DNA from: a virus | Taxonomy: Duplodnaviria > Heunggongvirae > Uroviricota > Caudoviricetes | IMG/VR virus record: IMGVR_UViG_2609459797_000002 | DNA: 14,736 nt | Reading direction: 5' to 3' (one strand) | Shown here: piece by piece, positions 3,261 through 9,312 of the stretch | Layout: every line of letters starts with the position of its first letter | How positions within the stretch are numbered: the stretch's first letter is position 1 | The notes under the pieces: generated by a model | Told to the model about the DNA's origin: nothing | What the model saw: only the letters and a program-made list of their open reading frames with translations | Databases searched by the model: none | Position numbers and translations under genes: made by a program

Positions 3261-3969
3261 AGCTTGGTGTTAACAATAGCCTGCTTCTCCTTGCCTTTCG
3301 GCACGTAAGAGGCTAACCTACATGTGTCTGGCATGAAATTGGCCTCAGATTAATGTTAAGCGTCTTGCAGGACGCGTAATGTTAACTGGGGCTTTTCTCT
3401 ACCTGCCGTTGGTGTTCGTGCCCGAGGCAGATAGCCTCAAGCACCCGCAGTCATTCTACTTAACTAAGATTTCCCCGCAAACCGTTTTTGTCCAGCACAG
3501 TAAATATCCAACTAAACCAATGGAGTTCGCTGTATTTACCGCCAGTATTCAATGCACATGACCGCCATGAACACCCCTAAAAAAAGGGCATTTATATATC
3601 CAAATATTAATATCAAAACATCAACTTTTTCCATATACCTTGCTGTGAAGATGATGGGCATACATGATGCGAACAACCAGAACGCAACAAACAAAAACTG
3701 CAATGCGTTTTTCATTATTCCTCCTACAATCAATGTGCAATTACATTTAAACACACCTCAATTTGGCCGGACATATAAATATCTAAACCAGAAAAAATCA
3801 CTTACATAGCGTTACAAACTCTTTAGTCTAAAGGTTCATCGTAAAACATTCCCCATACTTATCAGTCCGTTCCGCGCCAGGTAGCTCATTGCCTTATCTG
3901 GCAACCTGTAATCAGGTTTCCGCTTTTTCAGTTGGCTGGTCGTTTAACCGACATAGTTAACCCATTAAT

Positions 3970-4319: not shown

Positions 4320-4445
4320 CTAGGATTCGACATCAGCAGCACTTCCACCGCGTAACTCACCATAGTCCATTAATAGTTCATCCCGCTCTTCAAAACTGAT
4401 GTTATATTTAGCTGAACAAAAATCAGCCACTTTGTTCTTCCTCAT
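4320..4445 (-). CDS. possible small protein (41 aa), hypothetical
   Basis: Hand translation MRKNKVADFCSAKYNISFEERDELLMDYGELRGGSAADVES. Weak SD. Below the ORF-track length cutoff. Confidence 0.25.
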   Translation of the reverse strand: MRKNKVADFCSAKYNISFEERDELLMDYGELRGGSAADVES

Positions 4446-4494
4446 CGTCTTTTATTTCGTGGTATGAGTAATTGCAGTAGTTAAAGAAAATTTC

Positions 4495-4605
4495 TTATGC
4501 TCCGTCATGAATTTCATCAGGTGTTGCGTCATCGTCCACTTCGAATACATCCTCAAAATCTCCACCAGCTATTCCCGTTTCAATAATAATTTTGAACTTT
4601 CGCAT
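4495..4605 (-). CDS. possible small acidic protein (36 aa), hypothetical
   Basis: Hand translation MRKFKIIIETGIAGGDFEDVFEVDDDATPDEIHDGA. On the minus strand it is preceded by AGGAGG, then a GCCGCCC-GAAA-GGGCGG hairpin (GNRA loop), then ATG. Confidence 0.3.
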   Translation of the reverse strand: MRKFKIIIETGIAGGDFEDVFEVDDDATPDEIHDGA

Positions 4606-5683: not shown

Positions 5684-6649
5684 TTATCCTCTGAAACCAG
5701 GCGGAATTTCTGTATCCGGTTCAGAAATATGATTAACACAACGCTGTACAGGTGAACGTCCCAGGCGGATGACCAGTTCGTCCCATTTTTCGCGGAGCTT
5801 TGACGGGCTCATGATGTTTTTTACCCAGAATGGATCTCGCTGAACCCGACCAAACATTTCGCAAATTTGTCTGTGGCTTCTGCCATCCAGCATCCGCATT
5901 GTGCGCACGTCATTGGCCCAGGCAGTCCAGTTAGGCTCTTTTGGTCGCATGATCTCGCCATCATCACTGGCTGCCTGTTCGTAGAGACCCACGATCCGCC
6001 CCCAGATCCACTGCGCACACGCCAAATCCTCCCTGCTACCCCACTGGCGTTTTTTCGCACTAAACACAACCGCGTCGGAGTTCCGGGTTAAAGAATCCTG
6101 TTCAGTCGTCTGCGGGTCCGGTTGCGAAGCTTCCGGACGAAAAGTGTTTTTATTCTCTGTAGTAATCTCTGTTGTATTCTCTGTAAGATCATCAGGCCAT
6201 TTTGACCCGATGACATTGGGTCGTTTTGAACCAATGGAGCGTTTCATTTTGACCTCTTCCATCGTGTCATTTTGACCTGATGGAGCGGCGCATTTTGAAC
6301 CGATGGATTCGCTCAATTTGCCACCATCTAAAAGCTCGCTCCCATAGTTGATCGTGTAGAAATTGGTCATATCGCGCTTTGATTTATTGAGCTTTTCACA
6401 ACGCAAAAGCCCCAGCGTTTTCAGACTTGCAAACGCGCGCTTTAACGTTGACTCTGACCAGAATGGGAACTGTTCCAGCCATTGTTCCGTTGTGTTATAA
6501 ATCCAGCGAACACCATCACATTCCATGCCGGAGTTGGTATCTCTCAACCAGTAGTGCAGTTGTTGCAAAACAATGGCTTCGTTTAAGCCAATTTTCATTG
6601 CCAGCTGCGTGTTTATAACCAGTGGGCGTTCAGCAAAAAGAAGGCTCAT
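5684..6649 (-). CDS. phage replication initiation protein with DnaT-like (primosomal protein I) C-terminal domain
   Basis: Track ORF 5684..6703 starts at TTG; I chose the internal ATG at 6649 (MSLLFAERPLV...). The N-terminal part resembles phage replisome-organiser HTH domains. The C-terminus ...VNHISEPDTEIPPGFRG closely matches the E. coli DnaT C-terminus (...SEPDSQIPPGFRG) as I recall it. Confidence 0.8.
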   Translation of the reverse strand: MSLLFAERPLVINTQLAMKIGLNEAIVLQQLHYWLRDTNSGMECDGVRWIYNTTEQWLEQFPFWSESTLKRAFASLKTLGLLRCEKLNKSKRDMTNFYTINYGSELLDGGKLSESIGSKCAAPSGQNDTMEEVKMKRSIGSKRPNVIGSKWPDDLTENTTEITTENKNTFRPEASQPDPQTTEQDSLTRNSDAVVFSAKKRQWGSREDLACAQWIWGRIVGLYEQAASDDGEIMRPKEPNWTAWANDVRTMRMLDGRSHRQICEMFGRVQRDPFWVKNIMSPSKLREKWDELVIRLGRSPVQRCVNHISEPDTEIPPGFRG

Positions 6650-7448: not shown

Positions 7449-7856
7449 ATGGAAACAAAAAATTTAACTATCGGCGAACGCATCAGGTATCGTCGGAAAA
7501 ACCTCAAACACACCCAAAGGTCTCTTGCTAAAGCCCTGAAAATCTCCCATGTGTCTGTATCACAATGGGAACGGGGTGATAGTGAACCTACAGGGAAGAA
7601 CCTTTTTGCCCTCAGCAAAGTATTGCAATGCTCACCAACATGGATTCTATTTGGCGATGAAGACAAGCAACCAACACCACCTGTTGAGAAGCCAGTTGCC
7701 TTATCCCCCAAAGAACTAGAGCTCCTTGAGCTGTTTAATGCACTGCCAGAATCAGAACAGGATACCCAGCTCGCCGAAATGCGAGCTCGAGTAAAAAACT
7801 TCAATAAACTCTTTGAAGAATTACTAAAAGCCCGTCAGCGGACAAATAAAAGATAA
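7449..7856 (+). CDS. dicA: DicA, HTH-XRE (P22 C2-like) repressor
   Basis: 135-aa protein METKNLTIGERIRYRRKNLKHTQRSLAKALKISHVSVSQWERGDSEPTG... recognised as K-12 DicA; N-terminal HTH. Confidence 0.9.
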   Translation: METKNLTIGERIRYRRKNLKHTQRSLAKALKISHVSVSQWERGDSEPTGKNLFALSKVLQCSPTWILFGDEDKQPTPPVEKPVALSPKELELLELFNALPESEQDTQLAEMRARVKNFNKLFEELLKARQRTNKR

Positions 7857-8022
7857 CATCATCAATGAGTTATCTTTTACCACATCAATTATGTTAGCTA
7901 TAGCATACAAAATCACTTGACCGATATGTTAGTCATGGCTAATCTTGTTTGCATCAACACACCGCACGGTGTTCTCAGCAAACAGTTCCGCTACCCCAGC
8001 GTTAAGGGGAAATGAGGTCCGC
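7857..8022 (+). promoter_or_regulatory. promoter/operator region of the ydfABC-dicF-dicB operon
   Basis: Operator-like imperfect palindromes TGTTAGCTATAGCATACA (7892-7909) and TGTTAGTCATGGCTAA (7927-7942). Candidate -35 TTGACC (7917-7922) and -10 TAATCT (7940-7945) with 17-nt spacing, overlapped by the second operator. Confidence 0.55.
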
Positions 8023-8178
8023 ATGGATACTATCGATCTTGGCAACAACGAATCTCTGGTGTACGGCGTGTTTCCAAACCAGGACGGTACGTTCACCGCG
8101 ATGACGTATACCAAAAGCAAAACGTTTAAAACCGAAAATGGTGCCCGTCGCTGGCTGGAAAGAAACTCAGGTGAGTGA
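8023..8178 (+). CDS. ydfA: YdfA-like small protein (51 aa)
   Basis: ATG at 8023 (MDTIDLGNNESLVYGVFPNQDGTFTAMTYTKSKTFK...). The track ORF starts earlier at a TTG. Matches Qin ydfA in position and by recollection. Confidence 0.75.
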   Translation: MDTIDLGNNESLVYGVFPNQDGTFTAMTYTKSKTFKTENGARRWLERNSGE

Positions 8179-8179
8179 T

Positions 8180-8308
8180 ATGGATTTCGACACAATCATG
8201 GAAAAAGCTTACGAAGAATACTTCGAAGGTCTTGCCGACGGCGAAGAAGCTCTCAGCTTCAACGAATTTAAACAGGCGCTTTCCAGTTCGGCAAAATCTA
8301 ACGGCTGA
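8180..8308 (+). CDS. ydfB: YdfB-like small protein (42 aa)
   Basis: Hand translation MDFDTIMEKAYEEYFEGLADGEEALSFNEFKQALSSSAKSNG. ATG 2 nt after the ydfA stop, SD GGTGAGTGA. Below the track cutoff. Confidence 0.7.
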   Translation: MDFDTIMEKAYEEYFEGLADGEEALSFNEFKQALSSSAKSNG

Positions 8309-8337
8309 TAAGCGAAACAGCACCGCGAGGAATCAGT

Positions 8338-8556
8338 ATGCAGAAACGAGAACCCGTCATCATCGCGCCAGACTATACCGATGATGAACTTTATGAGTGG
8401 ATGCGCCAGAAAATTAATGCAGCGCAGGATCTGAAATGGGCCAATGAAGCCAGGGCTAAGCAGGCTGAAAATCTGTCCGCTCTGGAGCAGGATATCACCA
8501 ATCTGGAAAAAGCAGCGGCATTAAGCATTGCCAGAATGATTACATACCCGCGTTAA
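8338..8556 (+). CDS. ydfC: YdfC-like protein (72 aa)
   Basis: Track ORF; SD GAGGAA; third gene in the dicA-downstream cluster, as in Qin. Confidence 0.75.
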   Translation: MQKREPVIIAPDYTDDELYEWMRQKINAAQDLKWANEARAKQAENLSALEQDITNLEKAAALSIARMITYPR

Positions 8557-8896
8557 TAGCTAACCAACGAAGCTAAGGTTGGTAATTAAGGAGTTCTCCA
8601 CGGGTGAGGTGGAGTGCGTGCGCCGGACACGGGTGAGCATCCGGCACTGACAGTTTACTGAAAGGATATTTCCCTGAAAAGTCAGACCATAACGCGAAAG
8701 CGCACGGCGAGGTAGCTGGTTCATAGATAGCCTGTCGTTAAATTTTCGTCGACCGTGCGCTTCCGGTTGTGGCAACCCGCGAAATGGTGCGGCGGTAAGT
8801 ATGGCGGGGTTATTTCTTCCCCGTTGAGGACACCGGGTTGTCAGGTTGACCATACGCTTAAGTGACAACCCCGCTGCAACGCCCTCTGTTATCAAT

Positions 8897-8954
8897 TTTC
8901 TGGTGACGTTTGGCGGTATCAGTTTTACTCCGTGACTGCTCTGCCGCCCTTTTT
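8897..8954 (+). ncRNA. dicF: DicF small regulatory RNA (ftsZ-targeting antisense sRNA) with its intrinsic terminator
   Basis: TTTCTGGTGACGTTTGGCGGTATCAGTTTTACTCCGTGACTGCTCTGCCGCCCTTTTT matches the DicF sequence as I recall it. GGCGG...CCGCC pairing followed by a T-run. Sits between ydfC and dicB as in Qin. Confidence 0.85.
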
Positions 8955-9123
8955 AAAGTGAATTTTGTGATGTGGTGAATGCGGCTGAGCGCACGCGGAA
9001 CAGTTAAAACCAAAAACAGTGTTATGGGTGGATTCTCTGTATCCGGCGTTAATTGTTAACTGGTTAACGTCACCTGGAGGTACCAGGCACTGCATCACAA
9101 AATTCATTGTTGAGGACGCGATA

Positions 9124-9312
9124 ATGAAAACGTTATTACCAAACGTTAATACGTCTGAAGGTTGTTTTGAAATTGGTGTCACTATCAGTAACCCAGTATT
9201 TACTGAAGATGCCATTAACAAGAGAAAACAAGAACGGGAGCTATTAAATAAAATATGCATTGTTTCAATGCTGGCTCGTTTACGTCTGATGCCAAAAGGA
9301 TGTGCACAATGA
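9124..9312 (+). CDS. dicB: DicB cell-division inhibitor (62 aa)
   Basis: MKTLLPNVNTSEGCFEIGVTISNPVFTEDAINKRKQERELLNKICIVSMLARLRLMPKGCAQ recognised as DicB. SD GAGGA. The track ORF is extended upstream. Confidence 0.9.
   Translation: MKTLLPNVNTSEGCFEIGVTISNPVFTEDAINKRKQERELLNKICIVSMLARLRLMPKGCAQ

Follow-up and report, generated by a model that had tools for sequence, protein, structure and literature searches.

DicF is a textbook prophage small RNA (sRNA), which controls cell division, metabolism and the virulence of enterohaemorrhagic Escherichia coli (EHEC). In the present study we analyzed the sequence just upstream of it, that is, the 340-nt spacer between ydfC and DicF at positions 8557-8896 of a 14,736-nt stretch of viral DNA (Caudoviricetes; IMG/VR record IMGVR_UViG_2609459797_000002), which as a whole is called the window here. 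The closest described system is the 190-nt DicF precursor of E. coli K-12, which comes from the same locus and has essentially the same sequence as the spacer (Faubladier et al. 1990; PMC10448788). The 190-nt species has a 5' end that depends on RNase III; it is gone in an rnc mutant and accumulates on inactivation of RNase E. The 53-nt DicF requires RNase E, and there is no internal promoter (PMC10448788). In that work Ragunathan et al. 2023 confirm the findings of Faubladier 1990 on the DicF species, and terminated and read-through transcripts are both found in vivo (PMC10448788). The spacer itself has been described as a long untranslated region (PMC5069750). Our analysis shows that the 115 nt toward its 3' end (8766-8880, plus strand; module B) are a discrete conserved fold, probably pseudoknotted, which is common to lambdoid and P1-like phages, stands before many terminator sRNAs, and was not found described in Rfam or in the literature examined.

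Module B is a multi-helix RNA domain of five helices (P1 to P5) that is closed by helix P1. This helix pairs GTTGTGGC (8766-8773) with GCTGCAAC (8873-8880); 96% of its alignment cells are paired, and compensatory changes occur in 5 of its 8 pairs. In phage cdtI, for example, GTTGTGGT / ACCACAAC replaces GTTGTGGC / GCTGCAAC in a compensatory manner. The commonest pairs of helix P1 include U-G and G-U, which would be mismatches on the opposite strand; thus the fold belongs to the operon (plus) strand. P2 (8777-8792) is a hairpin in which CCGCG (8777-8781) pairs with TGCGG (8788-8792) around the loop AAATGG, with 95.9% of cells paired. P3 joins GTATGG (8799-8804) to CCATAC (8850-8855) and is 99.8% paired. 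Since the 3' strand of P3 sits within the loop of P5, P3 forms a pseudoknot in the model, and module B is probably pseudoknotted in this way. P4 (8805-8823) is a variable hairpin, CGGGG (8805-8809) with CCCCG (8819-8823), around a pyrimidine-rich loop; it is kept across at least 10 different stem sequences, and 3 of its 5 pairs show compensatory changes in the model-fitted alignment described below. P5 (8835-8871) pairs GGGTTGTCA (8835-8843) with TGACAACCC (8863-8871), and compensatory changes occur in 6 of its 9 pairs, giving GGGTAACCA / TGGTTACCC in Izhakiella, GAGTTGCCA / TGGCAACTC in copies of the phage P1 type and GGATTGTCA / TGGCAATCC in Citrobacter. The 19-nt loop of P5 holds the invariant GGTTGA, the 3' strand of P3 and CGCyTrAG. 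The minimum-free-energy (MFE) fold of the single sequence returns P1, P2, P4 and P5 unaided.

In order to compare homologues, we collected 120 viral-contig loci and 17 loci from a search of one genome per species, and aligned the 73 distinct sequences. In the MAFFT alignment 95.1% of cells pair and changes on both sides occur in 12 of 33 pairs, compared with 4.0 ± 1.4 in shuffles; slid registers pair only 33-57%. When the alignment was fitted to the nested part of the model, 95.9% of cells were paired (34-56% in slid registers) and compensatory changes occurred in 15 of 33 pairs, compared with 4.1 ± 1.4 after shuffling, a number that none of 500 shuffles reached. The structure of module B is supported by this covariation, which the preliminary description of the window, made from its letters alone, had proposed to look for among homologous prophages. 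In P3 a single pair covaries (U-A to C-G in copies of the phage P1 type, with U-G intermediates). The other five are essentially invariant, four of them never varying and one departing in a single unpaired cell, and targeted scans of viral contigs for P3 variants gave two uncompensated singletons only. The unpaired stretches GGCGGTAAG, CACC, GGTTGA and CGCyTrAG are also invariant, which suggests a conserved binding partner; part of the invariance of module B was imposed by the search patterns. The conservation profile within one type is uninformative, since close relatives are uniformly conserved.

The evidence for a real structure is this comparison with homologues, because the thermodynamic signal is marginal. 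The plus strand of the spacer has a folding-energy z of -2.1, with 2 of 100 shuffles folding as well, and 8766-8880 alone has a z of -1.8; that is, the folding energy of the spacer is only marginally unusual. The term "highly structured" in the preliminary description thus cannot be claimed from thermodynamics, although the homologues support structure. In the same way the spacer, which had been called strikingly GC-rich, is richer than its flanks, but the difference is moderate (53.2% GC, against 47.4% in ydfABC, ~41-43% downstream and 46.4% in the whole window). The inverted repeats that had been noticed are all present, with coordinates one base off: GCGCACGG lies at 8700-8707 and CCGTGCGC at 8753-8760, within a 13-nt repeat that is 92% complementary (8695-8707 / 8753-8765); CCGGA is at 8623 and TCCGG at 8640; and a perfect 9-bp repeat (8835-8843 / 8863-8871) contains GGTTG at 8836 and CAACC at 8866.

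Several other pairings were considered and rejected. The consensus of RNAalifold was not adopted as the main model; it is weak (-14 kcal/mol, 2 compensatory pairs) and built from invariant columns. One predicted helix in it, 8793-8796 / 8832-8835, could form in addition or as an alternative. A local hairpin of GGTTG (8765) with CAACC (8773) is paired in 86.5% of cells, against 96% for helix P1, and two of its pairs are broken in 19 and 23 of the 73 sequences. Long-range pairing of 8754-8761 or 8616-8623 with 8988-8996 gives 8 bp only, and in other phage types the downstream copy, the counterpart of 8988-8996, pairs with a partner of its own instead. As a separate observation, GTTGAGGACACC (8823-8834, between P4 and P5) resembles the ribosome-binding region of dicB, GTTGAGGACGCG (9109-9120), with which its first nine bases are identical; the resemblance may be due to chance, since other phage types vary in this stretch.

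Module B is widespread. Among 5426 complete E. coli genomes, 4034 (~74%) carry it, at 7776 places in all and with up to 7 copies per genome; canonical DicF was found at 6401 places in 3969 E. coli genomes. Module B is also carried by 495 plasmids, most of them P1-like, that come from Escherichia, Salmonella, Klebsiella and Shigella, and the collected loci come from seven genera of Enterobacterales (Escherichia, Shigella, Citrobacter, Serratia, Trabulsiella, Erwinia and Izhakiella). In cdtI, the Stx2c phages, Salmonella F1055, P1 and P7, module B is 75-88% identical to that of the window and the flanks are unalignable. Module B is thus a discrete domain whose spread is independent of DicF and of the remaining spacer. 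The suggestion that the spacer could hold an independent RNA element therefore proved correct for 8766-8880. Three metagenome-assembled genomes labelled Bacillota, Veillonella parvula and Collinsella (L132, L133, L137) carry copies of the phage P1 type or the E. coli type that are identical to enterobacterial ones; they most likely reflect binning contamination and not real host range. In PP818812.1 ('Actinobacillus phage vB_Apl-pPE4', L004) the unit of linker and sRNA after module B is tandemly duplicated (~2600-2800), and the region, with DicA, YdaT, Kil and exonuclease VIII, has the look of a lambdoid phage of E. coli, which sits oddly with the Actinobacillus label.

Known families did not account for the element. 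A scan with Rfam 15, as the preliminary description had proposed, recovered DicF (RF00039) at 8898-8949 but no family in the spacer: nothing in 8557-8896 matched at the gathering score or at E values up to 10, nor did the homologous regions of other genera match any family. No annotation lies over module B in the annotation rows shown. A tRNA- or tmRNA-like identity was rejected, since ARAGORN found no such genes in the window and the related loci and Rfam gave no match there either. A text search of the literature with the core sequence returned unrelated primer matches only, and a preprint on Pas-sRNA concerns other loci.

What follows module B is constant in kind and variable in sequence. 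In all 133 copies having enough downstream sequence (79 of them distinct), a terminator hairpin with a T-run ends 36-118 nt past helix P1, and in most copies a single-stranded stretch of 12-31 nt separates helix P1 from the terminator hairpin. There are at least 10 unrelated types of seed and terminator, including DicF, the cdtI type, the phage P1 type GCCCATCTTCGGGTGGGC, a short form GGCGGAAATGGATATCCGCC, long forms in Erwinia and Izhakiella, and others. Since the terminator types vary after a constant module B, the arrangement is one of a conserved 5' domain with variable sRNA "business ends". In the window this intervening stretch is the A/U-rich, single-stranded linker GCCCTCTGTTATCAATT (8881-8897, plus strand), at whose 3' edge RNase E cuts to give the 53-nt DicF its 5' end. 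Sequestration of the DicF seed by module B was rejected; with seeds that differ from type to type, it is not conserved.

Distant blastn matches among phages cover spacer positions 21-215 in phiSTEC1589-Stx1c, 30-102 in phi367, 210-332 in cdtI, Ayreon, Stx2c phages, 2H10, Salmonella F1055 and the Actinobacillus-labelled phage, and 221-317 in P1 and P7. A comparison of 99 distinct upstream flanks with the window shows similarity breaking off at ~8577, 8599, 8617 and 8677. Because its parts occur separately and similarity breaks at such points, we treat the spacer as four RNA modules, and on these comparisons it is a mosaic, or chain, of A1, A2, P0 and B. P0 (8695-8765, plus strand) is a long hairpin directly upstream of module B, in which 8695-8710 and 8749-8765 form a duplex of 16-17 bp that has one mismatch and one bulge and surrounds a variable insert (8711-8748). 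Equivalent long stems, of a different sequence (GAGAGCA.../...TGCTCTC), immediately precede module B in the cdtI, Citrobacter, Erwinia, Izhakiella and Trabulsiella types, so that the hairpin is conserved in several kinds of phage.

The published DicF species can be placed on this map. The sequence in Fig. S1B of PMC10448788 is that of the window at ~8714-8949, apart from text-recognition errors. When 190 nt are counted back from the DicF 3' end (8950-8954), the 5' end falls at 8761-8765, in the 3' strand or base of P0; from 8950 exactly, it falls at 8761, 5 nt before helix P1. P0 is thus a probable RNase III site giving the 5' end of the 190-nt DicF at ~8761-8765. The earlier idea that the spacer is the structured 5' part of the DicF precursor, a substrate of RNase III and RNase E, is supported by these published species and by the length that maps to the base of P0. 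The 72-nt DicF has a 3' end made by RNase III (~8969); the site for this cut is probably the stem 8960-8972 / 9093-9105, outside the spacer and downstream of DicF.

We propose the following explanation. RNase III would cut the long P0 duplex (8695-8765) and so part the ydfABC mRNA from a 190-nt "pro-DicF", which would consist of a short 5'-monophosphate tail, module B (8766-8880), the 17-nt linker and DicF. RNase E would then cut the A/U-rich linker at 8897/8898 and free the 53-nt DicF. Within pro-DicF, module B could act in cis as a compact fold that leaves the following seed region single-stranded; it might set the geometry between the 5'-monophosphate end made by RNase III and the RNase E site, and it may be recognised by a conserved host factor. 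We favour this explanation as a whole, that is, a precursor leader, a cut in P0 and a conserved module B as a pro-domain, and consider it somewhat more likely than not. Its central part is held more tentatively. Because module B is always linked to a processed terminator sRNA, forms the body of an intermediate that is stable in vivo and lies between two nuclease sites, we infer that it is a cis-acting pro-domain of the precursors of DicF-family sRNAs, a claim to which we give slightly less than an even chance. The amount of active DicF depends on processing of the spacer leader, and if the 190-nt DicF is a conserved domain plus DicF, then P0, P3 and P5 become precise targets for experiments. 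The same would suggest that many different prophage sRNAs share one module of biogenesis or control, and would add an unannotated RNA family that is present, often in several copies, in ~74% of complete E. coli genomes.

Several points weigh against this explanation. The aligned sequences are close relatives, with an effective sequence number of 1.4 in the model, and the covariation counts therefore reflect few independent events. There is little or no covariation in P2 and P3; P2 has one-sided changes only and not one compensatory pair. RNAalifold on the MAFFT alignment does not return the five-helix model. The placement of the RNase III cut in P0 rests on the 190-nt length, the cut being indicated in PMC10448788 only by a coloured letter. 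In phage P1, module B lies ~45 nt after the Pban promoter, and no P0-like stem is transcribed upstream of it. A processing scaffold has no obvious need for a pseudoknot or for invariant unpaired stretches. Finally, phiSTEC1589 has a DicF-like sRNA after module A and P0, and the core of module B is replaced there by GTTGTG-AATA-ACAAC (L142, 2700-2760); since this phage has such an sRNA without module B, module B is not required for making it. The replacement, in a phage that encodes an N protein, keeps the stem of helix P1 around a tiny loop, and the junction resembles a boundary at which module B was cleanly excised or inserted.

Other explanations of the conserved stretch were weighed against the proposed one. 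The fold could be incidental, the stretch being conserved by hitch-hiking with DicF on recently spread prophages. Most copies are indeed more than 95% identical and the thermodynamic z-scores are unremarkable, but the compensatory changes in helices P1, P4 and P5, the persistence of the P4 hairpin through at least 10 sequences, and the retention of module B beside unrelated sRNAs and flanks, in lambdoid and P1-like phages and in several genera, already disfavour this possibility, and we consider it very improbable. A protein-coding spacer has next to no chance of being the answer. The sole long frame is an antisense open reading frame (ORF) of 111 aa with 15 Arg (8560-8895, minus strand); a 54-aa version of it is annotated by RefSeq in some genomes as the hypothetical protein WP_001331716.1 (antisense, window 8560-8724, minus strand), hypothetical proteins are annotated over the region in several phage records, and a small sense ORF might be imagined as well. 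However, the 111-aa ORF has no match in Pfam, and its frame is split over 2-3 frames or truncated in 84 of the 108 sequence variants having a tblastn match, even in variants 98-100% identical in DNA that differ by a 1-nt indel; the substitutions keep RNA pairing instead. Because the frame is not conserved, WP_001331716.1 is probably spurious. The preliminary description had dismissed this Arg-rich frame as an artefact and had held that a conserved coding frame would speak against a structured RNA; no frame is kept among the variants. Module B could also be a riboswitch-like sensor of a metabolite, ion or temperature that controls the adjacent terminator. Its closing helix, multi-helix junction, pseudoknot and invariant unpaired bases are aptamer-like, the terminator lies 12-31 nt downstream, RNAalifold offers possible alternative helices, and the MFE fold of the 190-nt RNA pairs GCGGCGG of module B with the 3' arm of the terminator. 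Yet this alternative pairing is not conserved: GCGGCGG, the only candidate for pairing between the 3' part of an aptamer and a terminator arm, is absent in copies of the phage P1 type, and the phage P1 terminator is without GGCGG/CCGCC. There is no Rfam match at E values up to 10, no ligand-related genes lie downstream, and the downstream genes vary by phage type; on these grounds a sensor is exceedingly improbable.

More serious is the possibility that module B is a cis element that enables RNA polymerase to pass the sRNA terminator next to it, as put does in phage HK022, or a local attenuator. In phages without N, module B would then determine how much terminated sRNA is made relative to expression of dicB/kil, recE and xis. 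An intrinsic terminator always follows module B at 12-31 nt or more, in an operon that must continue; in the cdtI, Stx2c, F1055 and Erwinia types module B is part of the leader just after a pL-like promoter (TTGACA-16-CATAAT; 2184-2211 of the cdtI locus, L003), the phage P1 copy lies ~45 nt past Pban, and both terminated and read-through transcripts occur in vivo. No N-like ORF was found around 146 copies of module B (121 with at least 1.5 kb upstream) or among the small ORFs tested against PHROGs, and the N of phiSTEC1589, which lacks module B, was detected as a positive control; N proteins are diverse, however, so that this failure of detection is weak evidence. Moreover, the model of module B has no match in HK022 at 22.5-32.5 kb (best E >2 with filters off), its architecture is unlike the two-stem put RNA, and it occurs as a single copy per phage with none on the pR side, even in loci that cover the cro side. 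The early-left operon of Tritos has no further convincing plus-strand terminators, so that there is no need for processive antitermination. Inspection by eye, without a systematic scan, showed no conserved stretch complementary to the 5' arm of the terminator; the shared GGCGG is absent from the phage P1 terminator. Taken together, a role in read-through is rather unlikely. The broader form of this idea, in which module B belongs to a new RNA class with an effect on the transcription machinery and provides antitermination in N-less lambdoid phages and in the ban operon of P1, is quite unlikely, and so is its corollary that module B decides, at the first terminator after derepression, between the early sRNA and the rest of the early operon. 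If module B does control read-through, it is a second RNA-only solution to antitermination in early operons, after put. Module B might instead be a product in its own right, a stable RNA of ~137 nt (8761-8897) freed by RNase III together with RNase E that acts in trans as a protein decoy, sponge or anti-defence RNA, with the downstream sRNA as a mere neighbour. Across phage types, its conservation is higher than that of the following sRNA. It also has invariant loops and junctions, exceeds canonical DicF in E. coli (7776 against 6401 places) and is located in early operons, where phages put functions for host takeover. In contrast, no copy among 133 lacks a downstream terminator sRNA, the freed fragment would have no protective 3' hairpin beyond helix P1, and we know of no published detection of it. 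The published northern blots used a DicF probe (PMC10448788). We regard a trans-acting product as decidedly unlikely.

The locus supports the proposed precursor in its position. The window is a lambdoid early-left operon of the Qin/Tritos type, with dicA (7449-7856), ydfABC, the spacer, DicF, dicB, ydfD and an intact exonuclease gene (835 aa). The ydfC ORF (8338-8556, plus strand) ends with TAA at 8554-8556; the spacer begins right after this stop, runs on the operon strand and reaches DicF, which with its intrinsic terminator occupies 8898-8950 (plus strand) outside the spacer. The Rfam match to DicF (8898-8949) scores 76.7 bits, and the terminator hairpin (-15.9 kcal/mol) is followed by a T-run. 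The list of ORFs and this placement of DicF bear out the earlier statement that a 340-nt non-coding spacer separates the two. No promoter-like site was found on the plus strand at 7800-9200, which includes the spacer. The spacer, as is already known, belongs to the transcript of the repressor-controlled early-left (dicBF) operon, from which DicF derives, and is its untranslated leader between ydfC and dicF. RefSeq holds an identical locus with the same gene names; the viable phage Tritos has the same arrangement and a spacer 98% identical, and the viable phage mEp460 has a related one. Elsewhere in the window, Rfam finds the sok antitoxin RNA (RF01794, 99.8 bits; 3275-3446, minus strand), which indicates a toxin-antitoxin locus of the hok/sok type in the prophage region.

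The features upstream of P0, all on the plus strand, are predictions, as A1 and A2 show too little variation for covariation. The untranslated part next to ydfC (8557-8595) has a weak predicted hairpin at ~8563-8583 in the MFE fold only, with no comparative support. Hairpin A1a (8596-8614; CTCCAC / GTGGAG, loop GGGTGAG), which is also present in phages phi367 and phiSTEC1589, carries the first copy of the direct repeat CACGGGTGAG, and hairpin A1b (8622-8645; GCCGGA / TCCGGC) carries the second in its loop. In the variant L087 the stem of A1b is kept and its loop altered, and in the variant L123 a 29-nt deletion (homologous to window 8599-8627) corresponds to exactly one repeat unit bearing CACGGGTGAG. 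A2 (8647-8685) is predicted as a CTGAC / GTCAG hairpin around two inner helices.

Some observations concern related loci. In loci of the Erwinia/Izhakiella type (L140, ~4390-4500; L141, ~2230-2340; L049), the insert in the P0-like stem contains two hairpins with loops like a tRNA T-arm, GCAGGTTCAATTCCTGC and GTCCGTTCAATTCGGAC; ARAGORN and Rfam made no call on these hairpins. Downstream of the sRNA terminator (L003, ~2690-2790; L140, L141, L033 and L049), a near-perfect stem of ~20 bp, ACAACAGAgAAGAGCA ... TGCTCTTcTCTGTTGT, encloses a structured insert. This stem, whose sequence resembles P0, is likely to be a further RNase III substrate. On the pR side of phage cdtI (L003, 40-228, minus strand), Rfam finds the C4 antisense RNA (68.4 bits) adjoining isrK (60 bits); the pair constitutes an immunity RNA module of the P1 type, here within a lambdoid phage.

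The element can now be compared with described systems. In the accessible parts of the literature on the K-12 precursor, its 5' 137 nt are treated as anonymous, and no conserved fold, pseudoknot, or occurrence with other sRNAs, in P1 and P7 or in other genera is reported. The annotated "dicF-like region" of phage P1 (NC_005856, 68791-68892) overlaps the 3' half of module B and the terminator that follows. Its likeness to E. coli is due to module B and not to DicF; the terminator sRNA of P1 is unrelated to DicF, and the Rfam DicF model has no match in the P1 region. The STnc100 (RF02076) / PasD family is another non-coding module of prophages in the same transcript, directly after DicF. The STnc100-like stretch of the window (8947-9156, plus strand) scores 31.6 bits, below the threshold of 47, and lies downstream of DicF, not in the spacer; its outer stem (8960-8972 / 9093-9105) is a perfect 13-bp duplex, GAATTTTGTGATG / CATCACAAAATTC.

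Among host RNAs, the 3'-UTR-derived (that is, derived from 3' untranslated regions) or intra-operonic Hfq sRNAs CpxQ, SroC and SdhX are like DicF in that each stands at the end of an mRNA segment, shares its terminator and has a 5' end made by RNase E; unlike DicF, their precursors have neither a separate conserved 5' domain nor a prior excision of a pro-sRNA by RNase III (PMC9438474). Among phage RNAs, putL and putR of HK022 are also cis-acting structured RNAs that lie upstream of terminators in the early-operon leaders of an N-less lambdoid phage. We rejected an identity of module B with put because no homology was found, the architecture differs and each locus has one copy. The put RNAs are ~70 nt, have two stem-loops and stand after both pL and pR, whereas module B is a single-copy domain of 115 nt in which a helix closes off a multi-helix junction and a probable pseudoknot.

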